The position numbers and the translations under genes are program-made. A stretch of 64,000 bases of DNA from contig NC_052158.1 of NCBI RefSeq assembly GCF_902713615.1, positions 42,495,159 through 42,559,158 on the forward strand, in the 5' to 3' direction. This document shows positions 1 to 58,100 of the stretch, piece after piece. Source of the DNA: Scyliorhinus canicula. Lineage: Eukaryota. Position 1 is the stretch's first letter. Each line of letters begins with the position of its first letter. The notes under the pieces were generated by a model. That model ran no database searches and was not told the DNA's origin. It saw only the letters and a program-made list of their open reading frames with translations.

Positions 1-378
1 ACTATGCTCCCTGTACGGACATGATTGTCTGGCACAATTCAGCTCCCACTCCATCTACAAGGTTGCTGATGACTCGACCGTAGTGGGTCGTATCTCAAAC
101 AACGACGAGTCGGCTTAGTGGCGTGGTGTAATAACAATAATCTCTTCCTCAACATCAATAAGGGAGCTGGTCATTGACTTCAGGAAGCGAAGTATCGTAC
201 ACGTCCCTGTCTGCATCAATGGCGCCGAGGTGGAGATGGCTGACAGCTTCAAATTCCTAGGTGTAAATGTCACCAACAATCTGTCCTGGTCCCCCCAGGT
301 CGACGCTACAACCAAGAAAGCACAACAGCACCTATACTTCCTCAGGAAATTCGGCATGTTCGCATTGACTTACTAAAT

Positions 379-5952: not shown

Positions 5953-8900
5953 TTACAGGGGCACCCGGGCACAGCCCCTGCCCAAAACAGGGGATCCCAG
6001 GCACAGCCCCCACCCCAGTTACAGGGGGGCACAGGCACAGCCCCCACCCCAGTTACAGGGGGACCCCGGGCACAGCCCCCACCGCAGTTACAGGGGGGCA
6101 CGGGCACAGCCCCCGCCCCGTTACAGGGGTACCCGGGCACAGCCCCCGCCCCGTTACAGGGGAACCCCGGGCACAGCCCCCACCCAGTTAGAGGGGAACC
6201 CGGGCACAGCCCCCACCCCAGTTACAGGGGAACCCGGGCACAGCCCCCGCCCCAGTTACAGGGGAACCCGGGCACAGCCCCCGCCCCAGTTACAGGGGAA
6301 CCCGGGCACAGCCCCCACCCCAGTTACAGGGGGACCAGGGCACAGCCCCCGCCCCAGTTACAGGGGAGCCCTGGGCACAGCCCCCACCCCAGTTAGAGGG
6401 GAACCCCGGGCACAGCCCCCGCCCCAGTTACAGGAGAACCCCGGGCACAGCCCCCGCCCCAGTTACAGGGGAACCCCGGGCACAGCCCCCGCCCCAGTTA
6501 CAGGGGAACCCGGGCACAGCCCCCGCCCCAGTTACAGGGGAACCCCGGGCACAGCCCCCGCCCCAGTTACAGGGGAACCCGGGCACAGCCCCCGCCCCAG
6601 TTACAGGGGAACCCGGGCACAGCCCCCGCCCCAGTTACAGGGGAACCCGGGCACAGCCCCCGCCCCAGTTACAGGGGAACATGGGCACAGCCCCCACCCC
6701 AGTTACAGAGGTACCCGGGCACAGCCCCCGCCCCATTACAGGGGTACCCGGGCACAGGCCCCGCCCCGTTACAGGGGAACCCCGGGCACAGCCCCCACCC
6801 AGTTAGAGGGGAACCCCGGGCACAGCCCCCGCCCCATTTACAGGGGAACCCTGGCACAGCCCCCGCCCCAGTTACAGGGGAACCCCGGGCACAGCCCCCC
6901 GCCCCAGTTACAGGGGAACCCGGGCACAGACCCCGCCCCAGTTACAGGGGAACCCGGGCACAGCCCCCGCCACAGTTACAGGGGAACCCGGGCACAGCCC
7001 CCGCCACAGTTACAGGGGAACCCGGGCACTGCCCCCCCCCACCCCAGTTACAGGGGAACCCCGGGCACAGCCCCCGCCCCAGTTACAGGGGAACCCGGGC
7101 ACAGTCCCCGCCCCAGTTACAGGGGAACCCGGGCACAGCCCCCGCCCCAGTTACAGGGGAACCCGGGCACAGCCCTCGCCCCAGTTACAGGGGAATCCCG
7201 GGCACAGCCCACACCCCAGTTACAGGGGAACCCCGGGCACAGCCCCCACCCCAGTTACAGGGGAACCCCGGGCACAGACCCCACCCCAGTTAGGGGGGAC
7301 CCCGGGCACAGACCCCACCCCAGTTAGGGGGGAACCCGGGCACAGCCCCCACCCCAGTTAGGGGGGAACCCCGGGCACAGCCCCCACCCCAGTTACAGGG
7401 GAACCCTGGGCACAGCCCCCACCCCAGTTACAGGGGAACCCTGGGCACAGCCCCCACCCCAGTTACAGGGGAACCCGGGCACAGCCCCCACCCCCGGTTA
7501 CAGGGGAACCCGGGCACAGCCCCCACCCCAGTTACAGGGGAACCCGGGCACAGCCCCCGCCCCAGTTACAGAGGAACCCCGGGCACAGCCCCCACCCCAG
7601 TTACAGAGGAACCCCGGGCACTGCCCCCACCCCCCCGCCAAAGTTACAGGGGAACCCGGGCACTTCCCCCCCCCCCCCCCCCCCCGCCCCAGTTACAGGG
7701 GAACGCCAGGCACAGCCCCCACCCCAGTTACAGAGGAACCCCGGGCACACCCCCCGCCCCAGTTACAGGGGAACCCGGGCGCAGCCCCCGCCCCAGTTAC
7801 AGGGGAACCCCGGGCACTGCCCCCGCCCCAGTTACAGGGGAACCCCGGGCACAGCCCCCACCCCAGTTACAGGGGAACCCCGGGCACAGCCCCCACCCCA
7901 GTTACAGGGGAACCCCGGGCACAGCCCCCGCCCCAGTTACAGGGGAACCCCGAGCACAGCCCCCACCCCAGTTCCAGGGGAACCCGGGCACAGCCCCCGC
8001 CCCAGTTACAGGGGAACCCGGGCACAGCCCCCGCCCTAGTTACAGGGGAACCCGGGCACAGCCCCCGCCCCAGTTACAGGGGAACCCGGGCACAGCCCCG
8101 CCCCAGTTACAGGGGAACCCCGGGCACAGCCCCCCCCCAGTTACAGGGGAACCCGGGCACAGCCCCCGCCCCAGTTACAGGGGAACCCCGGGCACAGCCC
8201 CCCCCCAGTTACAGGGGAACCCGGGCACAGCCCCACCCCAGTTACAGGGGAACCCGGGCACAGCCCCCACCCCAGTTACAGGGGAACCCGGGCACAGACC
8301 CCACCCCAGTTACAGGGGAACCCGGGCACAGCCCCCACCCCCAGTTACAGGGGAACCCCGGGCACAGCCCCCGCCCCAGTTAGAGGGGAACCCGGGCACA
8401 GCCCCCACCCCAGTTAGAGGGGAACCCGGGCACAGCCCCCACCCCAGTTAGAGGGGAACCCCGGGCACAGCCCCCGCCCCAGTTACAGGGGAACCCGGGC
8501 ACAGCCCCCGCCCCAGTTACAGGGGAACCCCGGGCACAGCCCCCGCCCCAGTTACAGGGGGACCCGGGCACAGCCCCCACCCCAGTTACAGGGTGACCTG
8601 GGCACAGCCCCCGCCCCATTTACAGGGGAGCCCTGGGCACAGCCCCCGCCCCAGTTACAGGGGAACCCCGGGCACAGCCCCACCCAAGTTACAGGGGAGC
8701 CCCGGGCACAGCCCCCACCCAGTTACAGGGGAACCCTGGCACAGCCCCCACCCCAGTTACAGAGGAACCCGGGCACAGCCCCCACCCAGTTACAGGGGAA
8801 CCCCGGGCACAGCCCCCGCCCCAGTTACAGGGGAACCCCGGGCACAGCCCCCACCCAGTTACAGGGGAACCCCGGGCACAGCCCCCGCCCCAGTTACAGG

Positions 8901-10259
8901 GGAACCCCGGGCACAGCCCCCGCCCCAGTTACAGGGGAACCCGGGCACAGCCCCCACCCCAGTTACAGGGGAACCCGGGCACAGCCCCCCACCGCAGTTA
9001 CAAGGGAACCCCGGGCACAGCCCCCGCCCTAGTTACAGGGGAACCCCGGGCACAGCCCCCACCCAGTTAGAGGGGAACCCCGGGCACAGCCCCCGCCCCA
9101 GTTAGAGGGGAACCCCGGGCACAGCCCCCGCCCCAGTTACAGGGGAACCCAGGGCACAGCCCCCGCCCCAGTTACAGGGGAACCCCGGGCACAGCCCCCA
9201 CCCTAGTTACAGGGGAACCCCGGGCACAGCCCCACCCCAGTTACAGGGGAACCCGGGCACAGCCCCCACCCCAGTTACAGGGGAACCCGGGCACAGCCCC
9301 CACCCCCAGTTACAGGGGGTCAAGGGCACAGCCCCCACCCCGGTTACAGGGGGGCTCGGGCACAGCCCCCGCCCCATTATAGGGGTACCCGGGCACAGCC
9401 CCCGCCCCATTATAGGGGTACCCGGGCACAGCCCCCTCCCCGTTACAGGGGAACCCCGGGAACAGCCCCGAACCAGTTAGAGGGGAACCCCGGGCACAGC
9501 CCCCGCCCCAGTTACAGGGGAACCAGGGCACAGCCCCCGCCCCAGTTACAGGGGAACCCGGCACAGCCCCCACCCAGTACCAGGGGAACCACGGGCACAG
9601 CCCCCACCCCAGTTACAGGGGAATCCCGGGCACAGCCCCCACCCCAGTTACAGGGGAACCCCGGGCACAGCCCCCACCCCAGTTACAGGGGGACCCGGGC
9701 ACAGCCCCCACCCCAGTTACAGGGGAATCCCGGGCACAGCCCCCGCCCCAGTTACAGGGGAATCCCGGGCACAGCCCCCACCCCCAGTTACAGGGGAACC
9801 CGGGCACAGCCCCTACCCCAGTTACAGGGGAACCCGGGCACAGCCCCGCCCAGTTAGCAGGGGCACCCCGGGCACAGCCCCCGCCCCAGTTACAGGGGAA
9901 CCCCGGGCAACAGCCCCCGCCCCAGTTACAGGGAACCCCGGGCACAGCCCCCGCCCAGTTACAAGGGGAACCCGGGCACAGCCCCAGCCCCAGTTACAGG
10001 GGAACCCTGGGCACAGCCCCCGCCCCCAGTTACAGGGGAACCCTGGGCACAGCCCCCGCCCCAGTTACAGGGGAACCCCGGGCACAGCCCCCGCCCTAGT
10101 TACAGGGGAACCCCGGGCACAGCCCCCGCCCCAGTTACAGGGGAACCCGGGCACAGCCCCCGCCCCAGTTACAGGGGAACCCCGGGCACAGCCCCCGCCC
10201 TAGTTACAGGGGAACCCCGGGCACAGCCCCCGCCCCAGTTACAGGGGAACCCGGGCACG
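5953..10259 (+). repeat. GC-rich minisatellite, ~34-35-bp unit GGGGAACCC(C)GGGCACAGCCCCCGCCCCAGTTACA, ~125 copies (MHC IIB intron 2)
   Basis: Direct tandem repetition is visible throughout. Copy number is estimated as length/unit. Confidence 0.97.
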
Positions 10260-10322
10260 GCCCCCGGTCGGGGCATAGGGCCGGTGATGGGAAGTCCCCC
10301 CCCCCCGATCCCCCGCTCTCAC

Positions 10323-10583
10323 CTCTCCGGGGCAGCACGTCACTTTCATCGATGCCAATGTTAGTCTGACACATGGCGATCGCTTGTTGGTAGGTCGATT
10401 CCCCGCTCTCTTTAGTCCATCTCTCCGCATCGCTTTTCGACCAGTCCTTCACCGCGATGTACTTCTTCTGGTTAAAGTCGTAATACGAGATCAGCTCATG
10501 ATCATAGACATCGTAGTCAATATAGGTCCAGGTCCCGGAGCTGTTAAACTCACATCCAGCTATGCTGCTGTAGGTGTGAGCCC
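10323..10583 (-). CDS. mhc2b: MHC class II beta chain exon 2 (beta-1 peptide-binding domain)
   Basis: 261-nt phase 1-1 exon bounded by CTCTCTCTCACAG| and |GTGAG. It encodes (G)AHTYSSIAGCEFNSSGTWTYIDYDVYDHELISYYDFNQKKYIAVKDWSKSDAERWTKESGESTYQQAIAMCQTNIGIDESDVLPRR, with a Cys pair 61 apart, an N-glycan site NSS after the first Cys, Y(D)xE..xYD, W, and a C-x-x-N...RR end like class II beta CRHNYGVxESFTVQRR. Confidence 0.9.
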
Positions 10584-10805
10584 CTGTGAGAGAGAGAGAC
10601 ACACACAGAGTTACTGCCGGGAGACAGACAGCACCGACCCCCTGACATCCCGGGGGGGGGGGGGGGGGGGAGGGTCTCCTAACCACCGGGAGGTCTGATA
10701 ATCCACGGGGAACACCAGGAATTATCCTTCACTAACATGGGACCCGACAGACAGGAGTGGAAGGGCCGAGGACCGAGGGGAAAGGTTTGGAGCCGGGGGG
10801 GCGGA

Positions 10806-11490
10806 GGCTGTGCCTGGGGTTCCCCTGTAACTGGGGCGGGGGCTGTGCCCGGGGTTCCCCTGTAACTGGGGCGGGGGCTGTGCCCGGGGTTCCCCTGTAA
10901 CTGGGGCGGGGGCTGTGCCCGGGGTTCCCCTGTAACTGGGGCGGGGGCTGTGCCCGGGTTCCCCTGTAACTGGGGCGGGGGCTGTGCCCGGGTTCCCCTG
11001 TAACTGGGGTGGGGGCTGTGCCCAGGGTTCCCCTGTAACTGGGGTGGGGGCTGTGCCCGGGGTTCCCCTCTAACTGGGGCCGAGGCTGTGCCCGGGGTTC
11101 CCCTGTAACTGGGGCGGGGGCTGTGCCCGGGGTTCCCCTCTAACTGGGGCGGGGGCTGTGCCCGGGGTTCCCCTGTAACTGGGGCGGGGGCTGTGCCCGG
11201 GCCCCCTTGTAACTGGGGTGGGGGCTGTGCCCGGGTTCCCCTGTAACTGGGGCGGGGGCTGTGCCCGGGTTCCCCTGTAACTGGGGCGGGGGCTGTGCCC
11301 GGGTTCCCCTGTAACTGGGGCGGGGGCTGTGCCCGGGGTTCCCCTGTAACTGGGGTGGGGGCTGTGCCCGGGGTTCCCCTGTAACTAGGGCGGGGGCTGT
11401 GCCCGGGTTCCCCTGTAACTGCGGCGGGGGCTGTGCCCGGGTTCCCCTGTAACTGGGGTGGGGGGGCTAAGCCCAGGGTCCCCCTCTAAC
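10806..11490 (-). repeat. Same ~34-bp minisatellite in inverted orientation, ~20 copies (MHC IIB intron 1)
   Basis: The unit CTGTGCCCGGGGTTCCCCTGTAACTGGGGCGGGGG is the reverse complement of the 5953-10259 unit. Confidence 0.95.
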
Positions 11491-11655
11491 GGGGCTGTGA
11501 GAACCGAGTTACAAACTGCAAACTTGTCAGGGAGAGAGAGAGTGAACACAAATGTCAGCTGGAACTCTATAACTAATTGCAACTTCATTTTGCTCCACCG
11601 CCTAGCCCTATAACAGAGAGCACGATCAAAGAGCTATTGATGTGGGGTTATCTCG

Positions 11656-18573: not shown

Positions 18574-18729
18574 CGCCCACACGTGCGGGATGATTGGTGT
18601 TGGGAACACAGGCTGCAACTTGGCAATGTCCTCAATATTGGAACACACACCAGGAGGGGAATTAATCAGGCAGGGTAATTTATATTAATCAGAGGGTGAA
18701 CAGGAACCAGCGCCTACACTAAACTTCAA

Positions 18730-20342
18730 TACCAAGCCTGGGATCCAGAACCGTCTGATAGTCCAGTCCAACTCCCAGCCTGGGTCAGAACTGTCTGATT
18801 TAGTCCATTCCCACTTCCTGCCGGGATCCCGAATCGTCTGATTTAGTCCAGTCCAACTCCCAGCCTGGGTCAGAACTGTATGAATTAGTCCAGACCAATA
18901 CCGAGCCTGGGATCCAGAACCGTCTGATAGTCCAGTCCAACTCCCAGCCTGGGATCCCGAACCGTCTGATTTAGTCCAGACCAATACTGAGCCTGGGTCA
19001 GAACTGTCTGATTTAGTCCAGTCCAACTCCCAGCCTGGGTCAGAATTGTCTGATTTAGTCCAGACTAATACCGAGCCTGGGATCCAGAACCGTCTGATAG
19101 TCCAGTCCAACTCCCAGCCTGGGATCCCGAACCGTCTGATAGTCCAGTCCAACTCCCAGCCTGGGTCAGAACTGTCTGATTTAGTCCAGACCAATACCGA
19201 GCCTGGGATCCAGAACCGTCTGATAGTCCAGTCCAACTCCCAGCCTGGGATCCCGAACCGTCTGAATTAGTCCATTCCCACTTCCTGCCGGGATCCCGAA
19301 CCGTCTGATAGTCCAGTCCAACTCCCAGCCTGGGTCAGAACTGTCTGATTTAGTCCATTCCCACTTCCTGCCGGGATCCCGAATCGTCTGATTTAGTCCA
19401 GTCCAACTCCCAGCCTGGGTCAGAACTGTCTGATTTAGTCCAGTCCAACTCCCAGCCTGGGTCAGAATTGTCTGATTTAGTCCAGACTAATACCGAGCCT
19501 GGGATCCAGAACCGTCTGATAGTCCAGTCCAACTCCCAGCCTGGGATCCCAAACCGTCTGATAGTCCAGTCCAACTCCCAGCCTGGGTCAGAACTGTCTG
19601 ATTTAGTCCAGACCAATACCGAGCCTGGGATCCAGAACCGTCTGATAGTCCAGTCCAACTCCCAGCCTGGGATCCCGAACCGTCTGAATTAGTCCATTCC
19701 CACTTCCTGCCGGGATCCCGAACCGTCTGATAGTCCAGTCCAACTCCCAGCCTGGGTCAGAACTGTCTGATTTAGTCCATTCCCACTTCCTGCCGGGATC
19801 CCGAATCGTCTGATTTAGTCCAGTCCAACTCCCAGCCTGGGTCAGAACTGTCTGATTTAGTCCAGACCAATACCGAGCCTGGGATCCAGAACCGTCTGAT
19901 AGTCCAGTCCAACTCCCAGCCTGGGTCAGAACTGTCTGATTTAGTCTAGACCAATACCGAGCCTGGGATCCAGAACCGTCTGATAGTCCAGTCCAACTCC
20001 CAGCCTGGGTCAGAACTGTCTGATTTAGTCCAGACCAATACTGAGCCTGGGATCCAGAACCGTCTGATAGTCCAGTCCAACTCCCAGCCTGGGTCAGAAC
20101 TGTCTGATTTAGTCCATTCCCACTTCCTGCCGGGATCCCGAATCGTCTGATTTAGTCCAGTCCAACTGCCAGCCTGGGTCAGAACTGCCTGATTTAGTCC
20201 AGACCAATATCTAACCTGGGATCCAGAACCGTCTGATAGTCCATTCCCACTCCCAGCCTGGGATCCCGAACTGTCTGATTTAGTCCATTCCTACTCCAGC
20301 CTGGGATCCCGAACCGTCTGATTTAGTCCAGTCCAACAGCCA
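18730..20342 (+). repeat. ~42-44-bp satellite (CCCAGCCTGGGATCCAGAACCGTCTGATTTAGTCCAGTCCAACT), left part, with ~422-bp higher-order repeat
   Basis: Direct tandem units. Identical blocks recur 422 bp apart (e.g. 19041 vs 19463). Confidence 0.93.
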
Positions 20343-24831: not shown

Positions 24832-25843
24832 TGTAGCCACCTAAGATGGACACTGGGCTAACAAAATGGAGAACTGCTAAGACTGTAGGGAGAAAACAGT
24901 TTTAGCCAGGACAAGCAGTCTGCAAAGGCTAATTAGCATTCTGCACGTAACAAAACTAGTTTATGGCCAGGTGGAAGATCTCAACCAAAGGTGTAAATAG
25001 CAAAACGCTTTGCATAGTAATGAGGCAATCCAGATCTGGGCACACACAATAGCAACATTTGGGTTTGAATGGATACTTTGAGTGGACGCCCAGACGAAAC
25101 GGCACCAGAAGTATCCATCACAAAAGACCCTAGAGACCGCCCCACCCATCGAGAAGAGACCCTCAGATTGGGGGATTTGTAAGACATCGATTGGGAAATG
25201 ACCCAATCGATACATGGCAGGTAAAGGCCCGCCTGGAAAAGGCACGGACATTGGGGGCCCTATAAAGGTAGACCCCGCACATGGTTCTGTCTGTTTTTGT
25301 GCTCCGGCTTGGACTGCTGTTTTGACTCCGGCCCAGATCTGCTGTTGTAGCCTGACTCTAACTCCAGCCGTTGATCCTGTCTTCCATCACCAGCCGTTGA
25401 GCACCAGCCATCGTTCAGTAAGTGCCAAAACGACGCTCGCTACGTGAACCCGGCATTACTTATACATTATTCAACTATTAGTGAACAGAAGGTGCAGCCC
25501 AGAAAGGAACAAAGGCCTTGTCCCCTGACCTTGCTGGTTCCTACATAGATAAGTATTTAGTCGTTTAATAGTAGTAATAAGTATTAGTCTTTAGCGTATG
25601 CATGTGTATTTATTATATTTGTATAATAAATATTAATCGTTTGAACTTACTAATCGGTGTATAGTTTTATTACTTTGAACCTGACCTTGAAATACTTGTG
25701 AGGTGTCCAGATACGGCACCTGGCGACTCCGAGCTGAAAATACACACACAGAGCTGTAGCAGTGTTAAGCACACGGCCTTTAAACGGAGGCGTCTTAATA
25801 CACTCCAATAAACGCATAATACACTCAAGTAAAACGTGCAACA
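24832..25843 (+). mobile_element. Retrovirus-like provirus copy 1, 5' LTR (1012 bp)
   Basis: TGTAGCC...GTGCAACA with CCAAT at 25203, TATAAA at 25261 and AATAAA at 25625 and 25807. Preceded by CTAT, which is duplicated at 58492-58495. PBS-like TGGCGACATCCTGACGGGAC follows at ~25848; the primer tRNA is not resolved. Confidence 0.93.
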
Positions 25844-26159
25844 TTTAGTGGCGACATCCTGACGGGACACGGTTACAAGTGGCACCCCCACTCCGTCGAG
25901 GACCCTGAAATTTGAATCAGAAATCCAAGTAAAGAAAAAGGAAAGAAATCACAAGTATTCAAGGTGTTCAAACGAATAAACGTAATTCGGAAGTGTGTTT
26001 TGTGCATGCGTAGTAACAGGGTTGTAAGGAAAACCTGAAAGCATTTTTGTTGCGACAAACTTTCGGTAGTTTTGTGAACGGAACATAGCGTAAGCCTTAC
26101 CCGTTTCGTGAGACATAACCTCAACACCCCCTGTTCCAAATTTAAGTGAGTCAAAGAAA

Positions 26160-27905
26160 ATGGCCATGCAGTCAATGGAACGCCTCATGAACCCAGAACG
26201 GTTTGTGGTCGCAGCGACCAGCAGTAGCCGAGTAGGTCAGTGTCCCGTGTGGGAGCTGGAACTCTGCAAATATCTGCAAGGAAAGGGATGGCCCCTTTGG
26301 AAAGAGTTCTGTTTGAATGAGGAGACAGGTCCCGGAAGTATAGGACATACTTGGTGGGAGAACCTCTCTCAAATTCATAAGAAAACCCTTAGTAAAGCAC
26401 GCAAGCCGATGGCAATCGTATCCTGTTTGGCACAATTGCGAGGCACAGAGGAGGTCGTTCAGACGCTCCGGGCAGAATTAGAAGAGAGAAATCGAATGAG
26501 TAAAGTGGATGTCAGGGACATCGAGAAAGAAAATATGGATCTTAGAGGGAAGTTGGCAGAGAAAGGTAGAGAGGTGGATGATGCCAAGAGGGCACATCAG
26601 TCTTTTCTAGCCCATCTCAGCAGTTCCCAGACCCAGTACGAAAAGGCCTATCAGGACGTGCAACGTGCCGTCCTGATAAGAGAAGAATCAGAGAAGCAGG
26701 TAGAGGCTTTGCAGAGGCAATGCTCTGACCTAAAGGCAGCTTTAAGAGCACTCCATGCTGCCACCACAGAACAAAGACAGAGTACAGTAGACCATGCAAA
26801 ATGCAGGAAGCAGATTGCGGAGCTGCAATCGCTGCTTTCAGTGCAGAATGGGTTCCAAAGCACCTTTGGAACGCAGTTAGATGAGGAGAATGCCCCAGAC
26901 TGGAAAGAGTTAAGTGAGACAGCGCAGCGTTATGTTCAGGGAACATGTGCGCCAGCAGCGCAGCAGAAAAGACAAGCACCCCAACCCCCCACAGATCAGA
27001 TAGTTACCGCACCAATGAATCCAGTCACCACCCAAAGGAAAGCGACCACAGAAGGCGCACCCGATATCACTTACACCACCCCCTTAACTGTAACCCAACT
27101 CAGGGACGCGTGTGAGAAGATCACTCTGTTTCTCCCCACCGCAGACCCCCACCAATTTTTCGCAAAAGTAAAGCAATAGGCAACCATGTACGGCCTGGAC
27201 GAGAGAGAGCAGGTTAAGCTCACGGTCCTGAGCTTAGACCAATCGGTTGTAGCAGCCCTCCCCGACCCACAGAACGTTGGCGGAGGCACCCTAGAGGAAA
27301 TGCACACCTCCATTTTAGATGCCATAGGGTATAACCGAGGTGACCCAGTCGAAGGACTTAACAAGTGCCGACAAAAGAAAACCGAGCACCCCACAGCATT
27401 TGCAGGAAGGCTGTGGATCCATTTTAACGCAGTTTTCGGCGATTTAAATAGAGCCCATTTGAACCGAGAAAATATGGTTAAATGGACGCGCACCATAATT
27501 TCCCATGCCACAGATGCAGGACAGAGTGCTTGCAACAGCTATGACCCCTCAGAGGAGGCCCATAATGAGAAGTGGGTCCTGAAAAGATTGTCCCGCGCTT
27601 GGGAGCAATCAGTTCAGGGCAGAGGCAAAGTAAAGTCCCCAGAAGAGGCTCAGGCTGCAGCGGACATTCAGGCAGTGAGAGCGCACCAAAACCCCGCGTG
27701 GGTGAATGAAGGAAAGAACAGCCCTCCACAGAAGTCGCAGGAATGCTACAACTGTGGCCAGTTAGGACATTGGGCTAAGGAATGTAATGCACCCCAAAGA
27801 TCACAGAGAGGCCAGCAGACAGGCACTCTGAATAGGAATAAAGCCAAACCAATCCATAGTATAGGGATCCAGTCAGGACAGACCAATGTGGACGGAACGG
27901 ACTGA
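26160..27905 (+). CDS. gag: Provirus gag (coiled-coil N-half, CA-like region, one CCHC knuckle); in-frame TAG at 27177-27179
   Basis: ORFs 26160-27179 and 27186-27905 are in the same frame. CYNCGQLGHWAKEC knuckle. Donor-like AA|GTGAGT at 26146 just upstream of the ATG. Confidence 0.85.
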
Positions 27906-30900
27906 CGGTGTTCGGGCTCCCCCACTTGGGTCTGTGACACTCTTTGGGATCAATCCGGAAGACCGGTAGTCACAGCTAAGGTTAGAGGGAAGCCCATAGA
28001 GTTACTTTGGGACACAGGAGGGTCCCGCACCACGATTAATTCCACAACCACGGCACAGGCAGACACGTGGCCGACCACCTCCACCATCACACTTAGCGGT
28101 TTCACAGGACACTCGCAGCAGGGACACATTACAGCACCCGTAGCAATCCAGCTAGGGAACATCTCCACCAGACACCCAGTCGTATTAGTAAATCTTCCCC
28201 GGACAGCAGAACACATCCTAGGGATAGATTTTATGAACGCTCATAGCTTGTCATTCGACCCAGTTAACCAGTGTGTCTGGCGAATGGCGAGATCGGACAG
28301 AGCACCCGCTACTCTCACAGTAGGAGAGTACGCTAACCGGATTAGCGCAGTCGGAGACTATTCATTTGACCTGACTGCACTAAACACGGACAGACAAGTA
28401 AAGGCAGTATTAAACAAACATAGGACAGCATTTGCCAGTCACCGGCACGACTGTGGCAGAATGACTGGACAAATTCACGTTACCGGACCTGACCCCCGAC
28501 CACAGAAACAATACAGATTTCCCCTAGAAGCAGAGGGAGAAATAGAGAAGGTAATAGGTAGCTTATTAGAGCAAGGTGTGCTTAGAACAGTAGCCTCAAC
28601 CAATAATGCCCCTATTTGGCCAGTGAGAAAGCCCGACGGATCATGGCGTCTGACCATTGATTATCGGGAGCTCAACAAAGTAACCCCAGCAGTAGCCCCC
28701 ACGGTAGCAACAAGTCCCGAGACCATGCTCAAACAGGGACTCAACTCCAAATATTTCACGGTATTGGACATTAGCAACGGCTTCTGGTCAATCCCATTGG
28801 CAAAGACGTGCCAGTACAAAGTTGCCTTCACCTTCAAAGCACAACAGTATACCTGGACATGCCTTCCACAAGGATTCCACAATTCTCCCTCCATTTTCCA
28901 CCGACAGCTGGCGAATGGTTTAGAAAAATGTTCCCGCCCCGAATGTCTGGTACAGTATGTAGACGACCTACTACTGCAGACAGACACAAAGGCAGAGCAC
29001 ATTACGCTTCTGGCCGAGCTCCTGGAACTTTTAACCTCAATTGGATGTAAAGTTAACCCAAGAAAGGCCCAGATTTTGGAACACAAAGTGATGTATTTGG
29101 GTACAGTCATCACGCACGGCAAACGCGAGATCGAATTCAAAAGAATTGATTCGATTGTCAAATTGCCCCTTCCCCAGAATGTTTCAGCCCTCCGGTCGTT
29201 CTTAGGACTGGTTGGTTATTGTCGGAACCACATTGACGGATTCGCGACAAAGGCAGCCCCACTCTCAGACCTCCTTAAGAAAGGAGCCCCCTGGGAATGG
29301 CTTCCGCAGCATACAGAGGCTGTGGAGGAGTTAAAGAGAGCCCTTAGCGCAGCACCCGCGCTACAAGTCCCAGACCACCTTTCCCCCTATGCAATAGAGG
29401 TAGCGAGCACAGATCTGACCCTCTCGGCCGTGTTACTTCAGGAACGGCACGAGCAGCTAAGACCAGTGGATTATGCCTCCCGACTTTTAGACCCAGTAGA
29501 ACAGAGATTTTCAGCCTGCGAGAGGCACCTCCTTGCAGTTTTCTGGGCAGTTCAGTACTTCTCGTACATTACCGGACTCAACCCCATCACCATTTTGACC
29601 GAGCACACCCCCACACAGTTACTCCTAGACGGTCGACTGAAGGACGGTTCAGTTAGCCAGATTAGGGCAGCTGGGTGGACATTACTTTTACAAGGACGCG
29701 ACATTACGGTAAAACGGACCCGGACACACACATTTTTAGCCGACAACCTCCAATACCCAGGACAGCCCCATGAATGTGAAATTGTAGCACCCCTGCACAA
29801 CACAGGACCCTTCATAGCGAAGACACCCCCCAGGAAGATAGGGAACCCAAGACAAAGCCCCCAACACACAGACACGTGTGGCCCACTACGGATATACGTG
29901 GACGGTTCATCCACGGTTTTAGAAGGTGAGCGTATCACGGGATGCGGCATATATGTCGAGGACGCGCAGGGTCGCGCACTCGAAGAAATAGCGTTAAAAT
30001 TGGCAGGTCACTTAGGCGCGCAGGCAGCAGAGCTCGCGGCCATGGCTTATATAGTGGACCACCCCGATTCTTTCCCCAGCCCGGCGGACATATATTCGGA
30101 CAGTCGAAATGTCTGCAATAGTTTGACAGATTTTCTACCCCTGTGGAGGACACGAGGTTTTGTCTCCGCAGACGGGAAACCCCTTCCATCAGCCCCTTTA
30201 CTCCGCCACATTTTAGATAAAGCGAAGGACAGAACCTTCGGCATTATAAAAGTCAAGCCACCATAGGTCATCCCCCCCTGGGAATGTAAAAGCCGACGCA
30301 CTGGCTAAGGCAGGTTCCAGGCGAGGACACTTGTGGACACCCCCAGCTAGCGCACCAGCTAGCGCCCCTGTGAGCGCAGTTCAAGTCTCACAGACCGATA
30401 TCAAGGATTTAGATGAAGCACAGAAGCAGGATGAGGATCTCAGGGAGATTTTTAAAGGCAACTTTGTGCCTCAGTTTGACAAATTTAGACACGCACTGAC
30501 CACACATGAGGGTGTGATCATCAAGGACCAGCTTTATGTGGTCCCGCAGCAGGACAGGAATCAAATGATTGCTTTGTTCCATGACGGGCATGGACATCAA
30601 GGAATCGACACGACCACGAGGCACCTCAGGCAGCTCTGTTGGTGGCCTAACCTAAGGACAGATGTAACTCACTACATCGAGAATTGCCTTATTTGCGCCC
30701 AGAATAACCCGGAGAGGTATTCTAAAAAGGCACAGCTTCGGCATACTCGACCAGTTAATGGCCCCTGGACAAACTTCCAGATCGACTTTATAGGACCTTG
30801 TAGGAATGGCTTTAAATACGTTCTGGTGGTAATTGATACCCTTACCAAATGGGTAGAGGCATTCCCCTCAAGAACAAATACAGCAAAGACAGCTGCAAAA

Positions 30901-32130
30901 ATCCTGACCCACCACATCTTCACGAGATGGGGTTTACCCAGAAGTATAGATTCGGACCAGGGATCTCACTTCACAGGACGTGTCATGAAGAACGTCCTGA
31001 CCATATTCGGCATCAAACAAAACTTTCATATTGCGTATCACCCACAGTCCAGCGGGATTGTAGAGCGCATGAATCGGACCCTAAAATCCACACTTAGAAA
31101 AATGGTTCAAGAAAACAACTCAACATGGGATTCAGTGCTCCCATTTGCACTCATGTTTATCAGAAATACAGTTTCAACTTCCACAGGATACACACCACAC
31201 ACACTCATGACCGGACGCCCTATGAAAGGTACAGAATTCCTTTTAGGACTGGACATGACTAGCCCCGAAGTGACGGCCCTCACACACGAAAAGACAGTTA
31301 AAGACCTGGTTGAGACTGTGAGGTCTGCACAGATCGCAGCCGCAGTTCAACTAAGGAAACGGCGTAGACAAAGCACAGCATGCTTTAATAAGACCGTACA
31401 CCCCACAGAATTCCAGGTTGGGCAACAGGTAATGCTATCTGTATATAACCCCAGCAGTTTTTTGGCACCAAAATATTCCGGCCCATATTCAATTTCGGAC
31501 AAAATTAGCCCCTCAGTTTACAGGATAAAATACCCCAACGGAAAGACCGCGTGGTTCCATATTAACCAGTTAAAGGCATATGGAACACAGTCTAACCATG
31601 CACACCATGTCCTGCTAGACGCAGCAGAACACCTCGCCCCGCCCACCAGAGACACGTTTCCACCATCCCACTCACAGACCAGTTCTTCATCGGACTCGCC
31701 CACGACTCCGCCCACTGACCACAACAGACCACGCCCCGAAACGCCCACAAGCTGCCGCAGCAGAGACAGCGAAACAGACACTGACTCTGAGGACAGCCAC
31801 AGCACACCACTCTACAGCCCACATTGCAGTGACTATGACCCCGACTCCAGTGACCCCATGGAAGTCACTTACATTAAAAACCCAGACCCACCACCCGACC
31901 CCGACTACACCGACAATACCCATTCACTTTTAGACCCAACACTCTGGCACAGGGACAATTCGTACCGACTTGTCCGCAACGACGAAAGTGACCCCCGGTC
32001 ACATAATTCAAAAATTTCATGCCTGATCCACACAAGGGTGTGGGATCCGGGAGAGCAGGACGACACGGTGTCTGAATCCCGATACGGCAACCCCTTTGTG
32101 ACCCTGTTCACAGAGGCAGAGAAAAAGTGA
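27906..32130 (+). CDS. pol: Provirus pol: PR-RT-tether-RNase H-IN, in frame with gag after TGA; one frameshift at ~30260
   Basis: PR LLWDTGG; RT PVRKPDGSWRLTIDYRELN, LDISNGFW, LPQGFHNSP, YVDD; tether YASRLLDPVEQRFSACERHLLAV; RNase H YVDGS/AELAA/YSDS/KADALA; IN HDGH..C..C, IDFIG, SDQGSHF, SGIVERMNRTLK, GPY. Confidence 0.93.
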
Positions 32131-33087
32131 GGTGTCCAGATGATGTAAAATAGGAACCGCTTGAGGGAAGCGATGTCCTTTCTGATGGAACCTGCACGTA
32201 TGTTTTGTTTGTCAGTTTATGTTTGTTTGTATTTAATGTTATTGGTTCAGTTGGAGGCTGGACACCTTCTTTTCAGCTGAAAAGATTGTGACCACCTCGC
32301 ACGCACTTTAGTTTGTCCGCCGATACCTTTGAGAACTTCGGTTCCCAACCCAATGGTTTGATTGGAAATCTTTTCAGCTGTAAGGCTTGTGACCGCCTTA
32401 CACGGACACTAAGTTTCTCTGCTGAAATCTCTGAGAACTTCAGTTCACTGTTTTCAGATGTTGGAGCATCTTGGCTCCTCCCTTGTTTTTAGGTGCCCCT
32501 CTATTCGGCGAATAGAGGCTGCAAATCCACGGTAAACACATTCTTGCCCGTTCATTCCAGGTTACTCAGGCAGTGGACAATCGGCACTGAGGACCCGCCC
32601 TGTCTGAGAACCCACTTTGGTCAGCCAAGCTCGGGTATGGCACAGCACGCCCTACCCGGGGATCCCATTCAAATCGTACCCGTAGCGGCCCATACGCAAC
32701 CCATTCGACCTTTTCTTTCAAATTTATTTTCATTTTTCGTTAGGCAGCCCTTAGGCCGCCATCCCACATGCTATTTACATCCAGGAACATTCGGATGGTA
32801 AATGAGCAAAAGCCTGCGAGACGGCTCGCAGGAGGAAAGTTGTTAGGGGTATTGTGTTCATAAAATTCGCTTTTGAAAAAAAAAATGAGGGGAGTCACAG
32901 GGTGTGACTTGGCCAGTCATTTTAATGGGTCAATTGGAATTAGAGGACAGATACACTAACAAGTACGGATATTAAACTGTGTATTGACAGATACTGTGCT
33001 TGATCCCATAGCTTTCAAAGGACGAAAGAGGGTTCACAGCAAGGATCGGCCATACAGGAGGAAGAGAAAGAGAATGAAGAGAAGACC

Positions 33088-33432
33088 ATGATGGAAGCCT
33101 ACCTATTACTGTTAAATGTTATATTTGTATGTGTGGAAGCGAGTCACGTTTCCCCCACAACCCCCGCCGTCAATGTTTCCCTCACACCAACTTCCCCGTG
33201 CTCAGCTCTGATCAGTGAAGTTCAGACCTGGTGCACAAAATTTATGACATGGTACTCCATGTCATACGTGATTGAATCACTGCTAGTGATTGCAATCCTC
33301 TGCATAATCGTACAGACCCTCAGGTTGAGGAAGTGGAAGAGGAGAGCCTCCCGTTCCTGCCCCTCAACCATCTATGGAGTTCAATCCCCTATTTTCGGTT
33401 TCCACCAATCCCCCCAGCCCCTCAATGAATAA
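33088..33432 (+). CDS. 114-aa predicted single-pass type I membrane protein at the env position (unknown function)
   Basis: Hydrophobic leader ending VEA|SH, S/T/P-rich stalk with NVS sequon, C38-X10-C49, aromatic FMTWYSMSY, TM YVIESLLVIAILCIIVQTL, and RLRKWKRRASR. Kozak-like ACCATGATGG. AATAAA at the stop. The identical protein is encoded in copy 3. Confidence 0.7.
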   Translation: MMEAYLLLLNVIFVCVEASHVSPTTPAVNVSLTPTSPCSALISEVQTWCTKFMTWYSMSYVIESLLVIAILCIIVQTLRLRKWKRRASRSCPSTIYGVQSPIFGFHQSPQPLNE

Positions 33433-33792
33433 AGCACTATGTGAATAAAAGATACCCATGTATTATATTGTCCTGGACTCGACTGCCGAGTCAGGAAGCG
33501 ATATGTAATGTGGTATGAATGAATAAGGTTTAGACTGTAATAAAATGTTTAAGGTAAGATAAGGATAGTTGTGATAGGTAGAGGTTCCCGGTTTTGGTAA
33601 TGCATGTCCCCTTTGACATAGGGCCAAGTAGAGATGTCAGGTAAAAAAATTTTCTTCCCATAGTCAAGGACAGAATAGACGCCCAGGAACTTGCCGAGGT
33701 CAGGGAACACAAAGAAGGCACCCAGAAGCACTCGAAGCAACGTGCATAGGTGATCCTTCACAATTTTTATTGTGAGGATCACAAGGAGGGAA

Positions 33793-34270
33793 TGTAGCCA
33801 CCTAAGATGGACACTGGGCTAACAAAATGGAGAACTGCTAAGACTGTAGGGAGAAAACAGTTTTAGCAAGGACAAGCAGTCTGCAAAGGCTAATTAGCAT
33901 TCTGCACGTAGCAAAACTAGTTTATGGCCAGGTGGAAGATCTCAACCAAAGGTGTAAATAGCAAAACGCTTTGCATATTAATGAGGCAATCCAGATCTGG
34001 GCACACACAATAGAAACATTTGAGTTTGAATGGATACTTTGAGTGGACGCCCAGACGAAACGGCACCAGAAGTATCCATCACAAAAGACCCTAGAGACCG
34101 CCCCACCCATCGAGAAGAGACCCTCAGATTGGGGGATTTGTAAGACATCGATTGGGAAATAACCCAATCGATACATGGCAGGTAAAGGCCCGCCCCGAAA
34201 AGGCACGGACATTGGGGGCCCTATAAAGGTAGACCCCGCACATGGTTCTGTCTGTTTTTGTGCTCCGGCT
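33793..34270 (+). mobile_element. Provirus copy 1 truncated 3' LTR (U3 + TATA + 43 nt)
   Basis: PPT AAGGAGGGAA at 33783-33792 precedes TGTAGCC. The LTR breaks at ...GCTCCGGCT and joins Gypsy RT sequence equivalent to 22417. Confidence 0.92.
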
Positions 34271-43200: not shown

Positions 43201-46117
43201 TAAGGAAACGGCGTAGACAAAGCACAGCATGCTTTAATAAGACCGTACACCCCACAGAATTCCAGGTTGGGCAACAGGTAATGCTATCTGTATATAACCC
43301 CAGCAGTTTTTTGGCACCAAAATATTCCGGCCCATATTCAATTTCGGACAAAATTAGCCCCTCAGTTTACAGGATAAAATACCCCAACGGAAAGACCGCG
43401 TGGTTCCATATTAACCAGTTAAAGGCATATGGAACACAGTCTAACCATGCACACCATGTCCTGCTAGACGCAGCAGAACACCTCGCCCCGCCCACCAGAG
43501 ACACGTTTCCACCATCCCACTCACAGACCAGTTCTTCATCGGACTCGCCCACGACTCCGCCCACTGACCACAACAGACCACGCCCCGAAACGCCCACAAG
43601 CTGCCGCAGCAGAGACAGCGAAACAGACACTGACTCTGAGGACAGCCACAGCACACCACTCTACAGCCCACATTGCAGTGACTATGACCCCGACTCCAGT
43701 GACCCATGGAAGTCACTTACATTAAAAACCCAGACCCACCACCCGACCCCGACTACACCGACAATACCCATTCACTTTTAGACCCAACACTCTGGCACAG
43801 GGACAATTCGTACCGACTTGTCCGCAACGACGAAAGTGACCCCCGGTCACATAATTCAAAAATTTCATGCCGGATCCACACAAGGGTGTGGGATCCGGGA
43901 GAGCAGGACGACACGGTGTCTGAATCCCGATACGGCAACCCCTTTGTGACCCTGTTCACAGAGGCAGAGAAAAGTGAGGTGTCCAGATGATGTAAAATAG
44001 GAACCGCTTGAGGGAAGCGATGTCCTTTCTGATGGAACCTGCACGTATGTTTTGTTTGTCAGTTTATGTTTGTTTGTATTTAATGTTATTGGTTCAGTTG
44101 GAGGCTGGACACCTTCTTTTCAGCTGAAAAGATTGTGACCACCTCGCACGCACTTTAGTTTGTCCGCCGATACCTTTGAGAACTTCGGTTCCCAACCCAA
44201 TGGTTTGATTGGAAATCTTTTCAGCTGTAAGGCTTGTGACCGCCTTACACGGACACTAAGTTTCTCTGCTGAAATCTCTGAGAACTTCAGTTCACTGTTT
44301 TCAGATGTTGGAGCATCTTGGCTCCTCCCTTGTTTTTAGGTGCCCCTCTATTCGGCGAATAGAGGCTGCAATCCACGGTAAACACATTCTTGCCCGTTCA
44401 TTCCAGGTTACTCAGGCAGTGGACAATCGGCACTGAGGACCCGCCCTGTCTGAGAACCCACTTTGGTCAGCCAAGCTCGGGTATGGCACAGCACGCCCTA
44501 CCCGGGGATCCCATTCAAATCGTACCCGTAGCGGCCCATACGCGACCCATTCGACCTTTTCTTTCAAATTTGTTTCATTTACGTTAGGCAGCCCTTAGGC
44601 CGCCATCCCACATGCTATTTACATCCAGGAACATTCGGATGGTAAATGAGCAAAAGCCTGCGAGACGGCTCGCAGGAGGAAAGTTGTTAGGGGTATTGTG
44701 TTCATAAATTCGCTTTTGAAAAAAAAAATGAGGGGAGTCACAGGGTGTGACTTGGCCAGTCATTTTAATGGGTCAATTGGAATATAGAGGACAGATACAC
44801 TACACAAGTACGGATATTAAACTGTGTATTGACAGATACTGTGCTTGATCCCATAGCTTTCAAAGGACGAAAGAGGGTTCACAGCTAAGGATCGGCCATA
44901 CAGGAGGAGAGAAAGAGAATGAAGAGAAGACCATGATGGAAGCCTACCTATTACTGTTAAATGTTATATTTGTATGTGTGGAAGCGAGTCACGTTTCCCC
45001 CCACAAACCCCGCCGTCAATGTTTCCCTCCACACCCAACTTCCCCGTGCTCAGCTCTGATCAGTGAAGTTCAGACCTGGTGCACAAAATTTATGACATGG
45101 TACTCCATGTCATACGTGATTGAATCACTGCTAGTGATTGCAATCCTCTGCATAATCGTACAGACCCTCAGGTTGAGGAAGTGGAAGAGGAGAGCCTCCC
45201 GTTCCTGCCCCTCAAACCATCTATGGAGTTCAATCCCCTATTTTCGGTTTCCACCAATCCCCCAGCCCCTCAATGAATAAAGCACTATGTGAATAAAAGA
45301 TACCCATGTATTATATTGTCCTGGACTCGACTGCCGAGTCAGGAAGCGATATGTAATGTGGTATGAATGAATAAGGTTTAGACTGTAATAAAATGTTTAA
45401 GGTAAGATAAGGATAGTTGTGATAGGTAGAGGTTCCCGGTTTTGGTAATGCATGTCCCCTTTGACATAGCGCCAAGTAGAGATGTCAGGTAAAAAATTTT
45501 CTTCCCATAGTCAAGGACAGAATAGACGCCCAGGAACTTGCCGAGGTCGGGAACACAAAGAAGGCACCCAGAAGCACTCGAAGCAACGTGCATAGGTGAT
45601 CCTTCACAATTTTTATTGTGAGGATCACAAGGAGGGAATGTAGCCACCTAAGATGGACACTGGGCTAACAAAATGGAGAACTGCTAAGACTGTAGGGAGA
45701 AAACAGTTTTAGCAAGGACAAGCAGTCTGCAAAGGCTAATTAGCATTCTGCACGTAGCAAAACTAGTTTATGGCCAGGTGGAAGATCTCAACCAAAGGTG
45801 TAAATAGCAAAACGCTTTGCATATTAATGAGGCAATCCAGATCTGGGCACACACAATAGAAACATTTGAGTTTGAATGGATACTTTGAGTGGACGCCCAG
45901 ACGAAACGGCACCAGAAGTATCCATCACAAAAGACCCTAGAGACCGCCCCACCCATCGAGAAGAGGACCCTCAGATTGGGGGATTTGTAAGACATCGATT
46001 GGGAAATAACCCAATCGATACATGGCAGGTAAAGGCCCGCCCCGAAAAGGCACGGACATTGGGGGCCCTATAAAGGTAGACCCCGCACATGGTTCTGTCT
46101 GTTTTTGTGCTCCGGCT
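34271..46117 (+). repeat. Tandem unit 2 (Gypsy RT-IN 34271-36685; LTR 36686-37696; gag-pol 38013-43977; small ORF 44933-45280; truncated LTR 45639-46117)
   Basis: Colinear with 22417-34270 at an offset of 11854 bp. Same CT|GTGTGAAG junction at 46117/46118. Many single-base indels. Confidence 0.95.
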
Positions 46118-55100: not shown

Positions 55101-58100
55101 TTCCAGGTTGGGCACAGGTAATGCTATCTGTATATAACCCCAGCAGTTTTTTGGCACCAAAATATTCCGGCCCATATTCAATTTCGGACAAAATTAGCCC
55201 CTCAGTTTACAGGATAAAATACCCCAACGGAAAAGACCGCGTGGTTCCCATATTAACCAGTTAAAGGCATATGGAACACAGTCTAACCATGCACACCATG
55301 TCCTGCTAGACGCAGCAGAACACCTCGCCCCGCCCACCAGAGACACGTTCCACCATCCCACTCACAGACCAGTTCTTCATCGGACTCGCCCACGACTCCG
55401 CCCACTGACCACAACAGACCACGCCCCGAAACGCCCACAAGCTGCCGCAGCAGAGACAGCGAAACAGACACTGACTCTGAGGACAGCCACAGCACACCAC
55501 TCTACAGCCCACATTGCAGTGGACTATGACCCCGACTCCAGTGACCCCATGGAAGTCACTTACATTAAAAACCCAGACCCACCACCCGACCCCGACTACA
55601 CCGACAATACCCATCACTTTTAGACCCAACACTCTGGCACAGGGACAATTCGTACCGACTTGTCCGCAACGACGAAAGTGACCCCCGGTCACATAATTCA
55701 AAAATTTCATGCCTGATCCACACAAGGGTGTGGGATCCGGGAGAGCAGGACGACACGGTGTCTGAATCCCGATACGGCAACCCCTTTGTGACCCTGTTCA
55801 CAGAGGCAGAGAAAAAGTGAGGTGTCCAGATGATGTAAAATAGGAACCGCTTGAGGGAAGCGATGTCCTTTCTGATGGAACCTGCACGTATGTTTTGTTT
55901 GTCAGTTTATGTTTGTTTGTATTTAATGTTATTGGTTCAGTTGGAGGCTGGACACCTTCTTTTCAGCTGAAAAGATTGTGACCACCTCGCACGCACTTTA
56001 GTTTGTCCGCCGATACCTTTGAGAACTTCGGTTCCCAACCCAATGGTTTGATTGGAAATCTTTTCAGCTGTAAGGCTTGTGACCGCCTTACACGGACACT
56101 AAGTTTCTCTGCTGAAATCTCTGAGAACTTCAGTTCACTGTTTTCAGATGTTGGAGCATCTTGGCTCCTCCCTTGTTTTTAGGTTGCCCCTCTATTCGGC
56201 GAATAGAGGCTGCAAATCCACGGTAAACACATTCTTGCCCGTTCATTCCAGGTTACTCAGGCAGTGGACAATCGGCACTGAGGACCCGCCCTGTCTGAGA
56301 ACCCACTTTGGTCAGCCAAGCTCGGGTATGGCACCGCACGCCCTACCCGGGGATCCCATTCAAATCGTACCCGTAGCGGCCCATACGCAACCCATTCGAC
56401 CTTTTCTTTCAAATTTATTTTCATTTTTCGTTAGGCAGCCCTTAGGCCGCCATCCCACATGCTATTTACATCCAGGAACATTCGGATGGTAAATTAGCAA
56501 AGCCTGCGAGACGGCTCGCAGGAGGAAAGTTGTTAGGGGTATTGTGTTCATAAATTCGCTTTTGAAAAAAAAATGAGGGGAGTCACAGGGTGTGACTTGG
56601 CCAGTCATTTTAATGGGTCAATTGGAATTAGAGGACAGATACACTAACAAGTACGGATATTAAACTGTGTATTGACAGATACTGTGCTTGATCCCATAGC
56701 TTTCAAAGGACGAAAGAGGGTTCACAGCAAGGATCGGCCATACAGGAGGAAGAGAAAGAGAATGAAGAGAAGACCATGATGGAAGCCTACCTATTACTGT
56801 TAAATGTTATATTTGTATGTGTGGAAGCGAGTCACGTTTCCCCCACAACCCCCGCCGTCAATGTTTCCCTCACACCAACTTCCCCGTGCTCAGCTCTGAT
56901 CAGTGAAGTTCAGACCTGGTGCACAAAATTTATGACATGGTACTCCATGTCATACGTGATTGAATCACTGCTAGTGATTGCAATCCTCTGCATAATCGTA
57001 CAGACCCTCAGGTTGAGGAAGTGGAAGAGGAGAGCCTCCCGTTCCTGCCCCTCAACCATCTATGGAGTTCAATCCCCTATTTTCGGTTTCCACCAATCCC
57101 CCCAGCCCCTCAATGAATAAAGCACTGTGTGAATAAAAGATACCCATGTATTATATTGTCCTGGACTCGACTGCCGAGTCAGGAAGCGATATGTAATGTG
57201 GTATGAATGAATAAGGTTTAGACTGTAATAAAATGTTTAAGGTAAGATAAGGATAGTTGTGATAGGTAGAGGTTCCCGGTTTTGGTAATGCATGTCCCCT
57301 TTGACATAGGGCCAAGTAGAGATGTCAGGTAAAAAAATTTTCTTCCCATAGTCAAGGACAGAATAGACGCCCAGGAACTTGCCGAGGTCAGGGAACACAA
57401 AGAAGGCACCCAGAAGCACTCGAAGCAACGTGCATAGGTGATCCTTCACAATTTTTATTGTGAGGATCACAAGGAGGGAATGTAGCCACCTAAGATGGAC
57501 ACTGGGCTAACAAAATGGAGAACTGCTAAGACTGTAGGGAGAAAACAGTTTTAGCAAGGACAAGCAGTCTGCAAAGGCTAATTAGCATTCTGCACGTAGC
57601 AAAACTAGTTTATGGCCAGGTGGAAGATCTCAACCAAAGGTGTAAATAGCAAAACGCTTTGCATAGTAATGAGGCAATCCAGATCTGGGCACACACAATA
57701 GCAACATTTGGTTTTGAATAGATACTTTGAGTGGACGCCCAGACGAAACGGCACCAGAAGTATCCATCACAAAAGACCCTAGAGACCGCCCCACCCATCG
57801 AGAAGAGACCCTCAGATTGGGGGATTTGTAAGACATCGATTGGGAAATAACCCAATCGATACATGGCAGGTAAAGGCCCGCCCCGAAAAGGCACGGACAT
57901 TGGGGGCCCTATAAAGGTAGACCCCGCATATGGTTCTGTCTGTTTTTGTGCTCCGGCTTGGACTGCTGTTTTGACTTCGACCCAGATCTGCTGTTGTAGC
58001 CTGACTCCGACTCCGGCCGTTGATCCTGTCTTCCATCACCAGCCGTTGAGCACCAGCCATCGTTCAGTAAGTGCCAAAACGACGCTCGCTACGTGAACCC

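Follow-up and report, generated by a model that had tools for sequence, protein, structure and literature searches.

The window, a 64,000-nucleotide stretch of Scyliorhinus canicula DNA, carries between positions 22415 and 58491 three tandem units of ~11.85 kb with a mutual identity of 99.1-99.6%. Many 1-bp indels separate the units, indicating either recent duplication or an assembly artefact. Each unit consists of a Gypsy-type piece with a retrovirus inserted in it. Satellite arrays with units of 34-35, 42 and 44 nt are found at 5974-11551, 18727-20287 and 59265-63035. The features of the first retroviral copy (copy 1) and of its small protein are collected in Table 1. The primer-binding site may resemble tRNA-Arg 3′ ends. 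The gag of copy 1 has an internal stop at 27177-27179 and its pol is frameshifted near 30250-30266; in many other copies pol is a single open frame of ~1410 aa. Target-site duplications of 4 bp were observed wherever both element ends were read. The TGA-CGG junction is kept in families A and B, and among 40 10-kb stretches, the majority of which were picked for a long pol, 15 have a gag frame terminating in TGA-CGG-TGT. UGA-CGG is a type II readthrough context of alphaviruses and coltiviruses, and the retroviral contexts given in the accessible part of PMC13517186 differ.

Table 1 Features of the element in the window (nucleotide positions) and of the 114-aa protein (residues)
Feature	Position	Strand	Basis
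5′ LTR, element copy 1, TG...CA, ~1012 nt	24832..25843	+	sequence
Primer-binding site	25849..25866	+	sequence
gag: no N-terminal Gly, N-half coiled-coil, single CCHC knuckle	26160..27905	+	frame and domain analysis
gag-pol junction, in-frame TGA-CGG, type II readthrough hexamer	27903..27908	+	sequence; PMC13517186 (accessible part)
pol: protease, RT, tether, RNase H, integrase	27906..32130	+	frame and domain analysis
Conserved non-coding block	32500..32840	+	families A/B comparison, RNA depth
Splice-acceptor motif, AG at 33010-33011, purine-rich leader after	32997..33011	+	conservation across copies
Small membrane protein gene, 114 aa	33088..33432	+	ORF translation, family alignment
Polypurine tract	33783..33792	+	sequence
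3′ LTR, ends after 478 nt at tandem-duplication breakpoint	33793..34270	+	sequence
Small ORF, tandem duplicate 2, with compensating frameshifts	44933..45280	+	sequence
Small ORF, tandem duplicate 3, protein identical to copy 1	56776..57120	+	sequence
Predicted signal peptide	residues 1-18		hydrophobicity, near-invariant Ala18
Ser/Thr/Pro-rich ectodomain, sequon N29	residues 19-46		sequence
Aromatic stem W48-C49-x2-F52-x2-W55-Y56	residues 48-56		family alignment
TM with invariant E63 and Q76	residues ~60-78		family alignment
Basic cluster, RLRKWKRR after TM	residues 79-89		family alignment
Tail Y96-x3-SPIF	residues 96-103 region		family alignment

The element was placed with a careful RT tree of 36 rows and a quick tree of 99 rows, both built without foamy and Odin rows; the snakehead retrovirus (SnRV) and Loki rows were identified by eye from the accessible part of the PMC7947760 supplement and a Labeo rohita label. 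Its RT falls in a 25-row clade with SnRV, ERV-L-like and epsilon-like RTs (support 100/99), outside the Loki clade (100/99) and apart from Gypsy. Within the retrovirus clade of the careful tree it sits in a polytomy with frog, coelacanth and turtle Pols, where SnRV does not come out as its sister. With LTRs, primer-binding site, polypurine tract, gag-pro-pol, tether plus RNase H and this RT position, the element belongs to the Retroviridae, on the canonical side. A lokiretrovirus identity, assumed from NYNRIN-like labels, was ruled out by both RT trees; lokiretroviruses were found in none of six cartilaginous fish genomes according to the accessible part of PMC7947760. The closest Pols, 53-57% identical, are unclassified frog, coelacanth and Logan/ENA sequences. 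None of 28 candidate viral contigs was confirmed, and a metagenome scan gave seven loci, of which those read are ERV-L-like by tree position, with no close relative among them.

The accessible parts of PMC6001957, PMC2717909 and PMC4422223 describe in SnRV, Ovex1 and clade Huo a coiled-coil, non-myristoylated Gag with one zinc knuckle and readthrough of the gag-pol stop, as in the shark element, with RT motifs in common. SnRV differs in its RT (just 40% identical), its full Env and its UAG junction. Lokiretroviruses and Odin likewise have dual RNase H and a Gypsy-like integrase C-terminus, NYNRIN-like labels occur on relatives, and Odin is also env-less (PMC7947760 and PMC9040795, in the parts accessible). 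Unlike the lokiretroviruses as described there, the shark element has its RT outside their clade, and a strict first-pass search for a paramyxovirus-F-like env gave no match.

A small membrane protein gene under purifying selection

The ORF downstream of pol is the longest forward frame between the pol stop (32130) and the polypurine tract (33783), with 142 aa from stop to stop. Translation bears out the sequence-only reading that this interval holds no env-sized ORF and that its best-formed ORF encodes 114 aa. That reading had also pointed to the identity of copies 1 and 3. Their proteins are indeed identical, and copy 2 carries compensating frameshifts; since the window's copies are tandem duplicates at the identity given above, the agreement is not independent evidence of conservation. 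An out-of-frame upstream ATG overlaps the ORF start in copy 1 (33074-33091), and most reads differ at 33075.

The protein has two hydrophobic stretches, with Kyte-Doolittle 19-mer means of 1.7 at the N-terminus and 2.25 from residue 58, a single sequon at N29, and cysteines at 15, 38, 49, 72 and 91. Intact natural ORFs (at least 22 listed) encode 111-129 aa, with one mature TM and an ectodomain of ~40 aa. Residues N29/S31, W48, F52, W55-Y56-S57, S59, E63, L65-L66, Q76, R79, K82-W83, R85, A87, P101, F103 and Q107 are invariant in all 20 representatives, and C49, Y96 and A18 nearly so. The proposed aromatic membrane-proximal stretch and the polybasic cluster after the TM are family-wide features. 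Among 62 distinct intact ORFs, E63 is kept in 62, W-C49 in 60 and the sequon in 61; the ectodomain, half Ser/Thr/Pro in composition, is predicted to be glycosylated, in keeping with the earlier description of a ~40-aa sequon-bearing ectodomain. The hydrophobic N-terminus and near-invariant Ala18 of the proposed signal peptide were recovered, and from the A-X-A-like context of this alanine we infer cleavage, with VEA/SH as the suggested site. The TM stands on its hydropathy; the cysteine noted within it, Cys72, varies among young copies. A p10-like cystine loop (C-X10-C) did not survive comparison: a second ectodomain Cys is present in 38 of the 62 intact ORFs, a sample rich in family A, and in 7 of the 20 representatives, in three different registers, being absent from the other 13. 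The C38-C49 loop is restricted to the window's subfamily. AlphaFold2 gave a pTM of 0.32, with helices at 2-19 and 37-89. Hydrophobic moments are modest in the stem (0.3-0.4) and high only in the basic stretch; the Pro-rich tail has a low moment and a pLDDT below 50.

A first-pass search of the genome (4.2 Gb) returned 5425 ORF candidates and 4846 pol-tail candidates, 150 of each being scored; candidate copies of the element number ~5,000, which is not an exact copy number. LTR pairs are 98.4-99.7% identical in 7/7 copies measured, which marks a young family with recent activity. An older family B, found via a 60%-identical integrase piece, has the same ORF in the same place at ~50% identity. 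Further subfamilies retain it at 44-89% protein identity, and a second catshark species also keeps it; named Scyliorhinus proteins are among those matching family members.

Families A and B were compared column-wise using 29 + 29 loci selected by pol, after dropping L034 (the window's duplicate) and L073 (a likely duplicate of L072). The pN/pS ratio is 0.44 for the entire ORF (90 codons); over aa 46-103 it is 0.22, where integrase has 0.21. The two remaining forward frames give 1.03 and 1.54, and the antisense frame with the same third positions has a ratio of 0.57 in the ORF and 0.38 in integrase. There are no in-frame stop columns in the ORF frame and 3-11 in each of the five others; the codon pattern of purifying selection is seen in the ORF frame only. 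A codon model gave an omega of 0.30 for 20 intact natural ORFs, a set selected for the absence of stops in which neutral changes since insertion also count. Of 29 loci selected by pol alone, 21 have the ORF intact. These values are not those of a neutrally evolving frame: the 114-aa ORF is a real gene under purifying selection. By region, pN/pS is 0.66 in the signal, 0.53 in the ectodomain, 0.22 in stem plus TM, 0.24 in the basic cluster and 0.29 in the tail. Constraint is weakest in the signal and ectodomain and strongest in stem plus TM, which suggests that the working part is the stem, TM and tail rather than an N-terminal loop.

Conservation arising from an overlapping RNA element or from recent amplification, with no functional protein at all, is very improbable. 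A conserved non-coding block does lie just upstream, and the 3′ ORF sequence of SnRV has a cis role (PMC12193657, accessible part). Against this, synonymous sites are saturated to the same degree in the ORF and in integrase (pS 0.67 in both), amino acids are kept and stop columns are lacking. The upstream block is ~75% identical between families A and B, compared with 33% at synonymous sites, has no codon pattern and shows the highest RNA depth of the element. Several of its hairpins are kept in 20 copies (folding z -2.1), with two-sided change in only 4 of 59 pairs. It is a candidate export, packaging or internal-promoter element. An Rfam search gave 0 matches. A second ORF within 32541-32830 was ruled out, the codon pattern being absent in six frames. 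The non-coding block also contains a second polypyrimidine-AG at ~32743.

The env position and its expression signals

In all 125 loci with both genes, the ORF lies 337-2185 nt from pol, mostly 750-1010 nt (some insertions are counted twice). No env-sized frame was found in these loci, nor around the ORF among the 450 scored matches listed; the longest frame around 300 scored ORF matches is 322 aa. Together with the selection described above, the 125 loci uphold the description of an env-less vertebrate retroelement with a small, selected type-I membrane gene at the env position. The ORF would be an internal env deletion if related proviruses carried a full env ending like it. Such proviruses were not seen in the loci examined, which does not prove their absence, and no env-bearing parent was found in the 125 loci or among longer database homologues, which were host fusions only (a weak search). 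A parent Env in another species is possible. In the frog Pol model P0002 the C-terminus is followed by a signal peptide together with an Ig V-like segment resembling SLAM/CEACAM (E 0.004). A related frog element may have captured a gene at its env position here; otherwise the extension is an artefact of the gene model.

Env-bearing epsilon-like ERVs of two or more families (L236-L240) are also present in the genome. The PF00429 Envs in the genome belong to epsilon-like elements, and Trp-rich stems precede their TMs. An ancient internal deletion could have left the signal peptide, stem, TM and tail of some Env, a remnant that would be kept as an assembly or budding scaffold or for borrowing the Env of these coexisting families. 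The stem of VSV G has a role in budding. The env position, the env-type acceptor, the signal-stem-TM-tail order and the Trp-rich stems of Envs in the same genome all suit such an origin, which we nevertheless regard as unlikely. The small ORF did not match any of 20 PF00429 Env loci of the same genome (best E 0.58), hhalign against two full Env frames gave probabilities of 0.05% and 0.2%, and the longer homologues include no Env. A PF00523 search, a strict first pass without a positive control, also gave no match.

Of 62 distinct intact ORFs, 59 have the acceptor motif 38-90 nt 5′ of the ATG, with purine-rich sequence next. Eight shark RefSeq models (P0183-P0190) include the small ORF, and several of them attach a host protein at a point 14-20 codons upstream of it. 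In P0188 the first viral residues fit the frame directly after the AG; P0183 and P0184 do likewise, judged by eye. Acceptor use here is that of gene models and not of splice reads from this analysis. Isoform models ending in the small ORF involve B3GAT1-like, galectin-related, KIAA1958, SUGCT and HEPACAM2-like host genes.

Oligo-dT reads are almost all from one strand, which fits sense RNA if the library was stranded in the usual way. RNA depth over the ORF is 21-25, against 0.2-0.5 antisense; it is 21-72 across 32390-33790, against 0.5-10 across gag-pol, a gradient for which 3′ bias can account. Only 37 of 1095 reads are at least 99% alike, so the source of the RNA is other copies. No leader-to-acceptor junction read was found among 1095 + 4344 reads. 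Other subfamilies do not conserve the leader splice donor considered at 26146.

Candidate functions of the small protein

Homologue searches gave few leads. None of nine candidates of similar length scored, and a PDB profile search found nothing below E 0.05. The best ESM Atlas scores for two family members, 0.88 and 0.89, fall in unnamed clusters and are leads only; the weak neighbours are small TM proteins, with influenza M2 at 0.82-0.83. The best weak family match is TMEM156 (PF15106), which covers stem, TM and basic region in 16 of 20 members (best E 3.4e-4). Small ORF copies make up 13 of the top 15 matches of this profile in the genome, and it matched none of four control TM segments, too few controls. 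Membership of TMEM156 was rejected, at no more than 22.9 bits against a cut-off of 27 bits. No host TMEM156 was found in the S. canicula genome, and the likeness may be taken as a lead to gene capture only. The literature search, with Repbase/Dfam and subscription journals outside its scope, found no description of the lineage or the small gene; within the searchable literature the gene is previously undescribed.

Reovirus FAST proteins (p10, p14, p15) were proposed as the model for the shark protein, and share with it 100-200 aa, one TM, a small ectodomain, an aromatic membrane-proximal region and a polybasic motif; R79, K82 and R85 are invariant, as such a motif would have it. Membership of the FAST group did not hold. 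FAST proteins have a reverse signal anchor and a fusion peptide that carries a myristate or is built on a cystine loop, features that the shark ORF does not show family-wide; the myristoylation motif MGxxxS/T occurs in 0/62 intact ORFs. FAST trafficking uses neither signal peptide nor glycosylation (PMC3952855, accessible part), unlike the shark ORF with its predicted signal peptide and conserved sequon. The amphipathic endodomain helix of FAST is not clear in the shark ORF beyond the basic stretch.

A further parallel is sORF2 of insect MDG1-group elements, as described in the accessible part of bioRxiv 2025.03.14.642691: an env-less LTR host element with a short, single-TM, N-out ORF bearing a juxtamembrane basic cluster. 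In 7 of the 22 lepidopteran cases there, sORF2 follows pol, as the shark ORF does, and the mature ectodomain of the latter falls within the 10-50 residue range of sORF2. Unlike sORF2, whose hosts are Metaviridae, the shark ORF is carried by a retrovirus with dual RNase H, lacks a myristoylation motif, carries a conserved sequon and begins with a signal peptide predicted to be cleaved; the likeness drawn here is one of layout, no sequence homology having been found. The FAST reading has partial support: the resemblance to sORF2 and FAST is one of outline only, and the predicted protein fails three FAST-defining features. The accessible part of PMC4299795 describes in CrocERV31 a non-class-I/II ERV whose env was swapped for a membrane gene (captured nectin3) under purifying selection. 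There a complete host gene is involved, with six insertions; the shark gene is tiny, with no host source identified, and present in thousands of copies and many subfamilies.

We tentatively favour, at somewhat short of even confidence, the reading that the small gene is an Env replacement that aids contact-dependent spread and is not a FAST member, fusion being putative. This reading draws on the env position, on expression signals like those of env, on selection in each of the subfamilies sampled and on the precedents from insects and crocodilians. The ORF would be expressed from a spliced, env-like mRNA; the signal peptide would be cleaved and the protein delivered to the surface via the basic cluster. 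The glycosylated N-terminal part would act as a spacer with little demand on sequence, while the stem, TM and tail would form clusters in the membrane that draw capsids or actin regulators to sites of cell contact. Such a small type-I membrane glycoprotein would replace Env in that capsids pass between touching cells and not as free infectious particles. Several observations count against it. No candidate fusion peptide is apparent, with neither a myristoylation motif nor a conserved loop. The ectodomain is Ser/Thr/Pro-rich with a conserved sequon, and the stem moments are modest. The invariant intramembrane Glu suits partner binding at least equally, and leader-to-acceptor reads were lacking. 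Env-less elements can also amplify within cells with no need of a transfer protein.

The sequence-only reading had offered an accessory or immune-modulating protein as its alternative, and this we consider nearly as likely as Env replacement, which still leaves it on the doubtful side. The protein would bind a host membrane protein via Glu63 and Gln76, perhaps as a Cys49-linked dimer, and would lower a restriction or immune factor or activate a growth receptor in the transposing cell. Papillomavirus E5 and HIV Vpu are models for such an intramembrane modulator. The conservation of E63 and W-C49, the strong constraint on stem plus TM and the small TM proteins among the weak Atlas neighbours are in line with it, as is a YV[IV]E[SA]LL stretch resembling shark CD3zeta/FcRgamma TM exons (L188, L189) in the same register to the first Arg. 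A CD3zeta/FcRgamma mimic was rejected, this likeness not being significant: the hhalign probability is 0.6%, and PF11628 picked 0 ORF copies at E<=10. The Tyr/Thr residues of the zeta dimer are absent from the ORF, whose tail has a single Tyr and neither an ITAM nor a YxxPhi motif, and modulation leaves the exact env position unexplained.

The same polar TM residues would also fit a viroporin, in which the TM with its Glu and Gln oligomerises to a small channel and alters compartment pH or membrane permeability. A single amphiphilic TM with invariant polar residues and the low-scoring M2 neighbour are compatible with this. The Atlas scores, below 0.9, are leads only, a His/Trp gate is lacking and it is not evident why an env-less element would need a channel; we judge a viroporin quite improbable.

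Endogenous retroviruses that lose Env are usually regarded as confined to single cells, and their env region as left to decay. The shark lineage, env-less and very successful, retains a small membrane gene in that place, and selection on this gene matches that on integrase in strength. As the acceptor has been recruited into host gene models, the small ORF may add membrane anchors to shark proteins. If the protein modulates a host protein, it would represent a new retroviral accessory family and point to a host factor that limits transposition. If it acts in transfer, env-independent spread would extend from insect Metaviridae to vertebrate retroviruses, with a new minimal fusogen design in one short ORF. 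On the fullest form of this proposal, which we put forward as less likely than not, a vertebrate retrovirus lineage would have dropped Env and taken up a glycosylated, signal-peptide-bearing cell-to-cell transfer protein of ~100 residues and new design, a counterpart of sORF2, and would have moved from soma to germline without virions to reach thousands of copies in catsharks.
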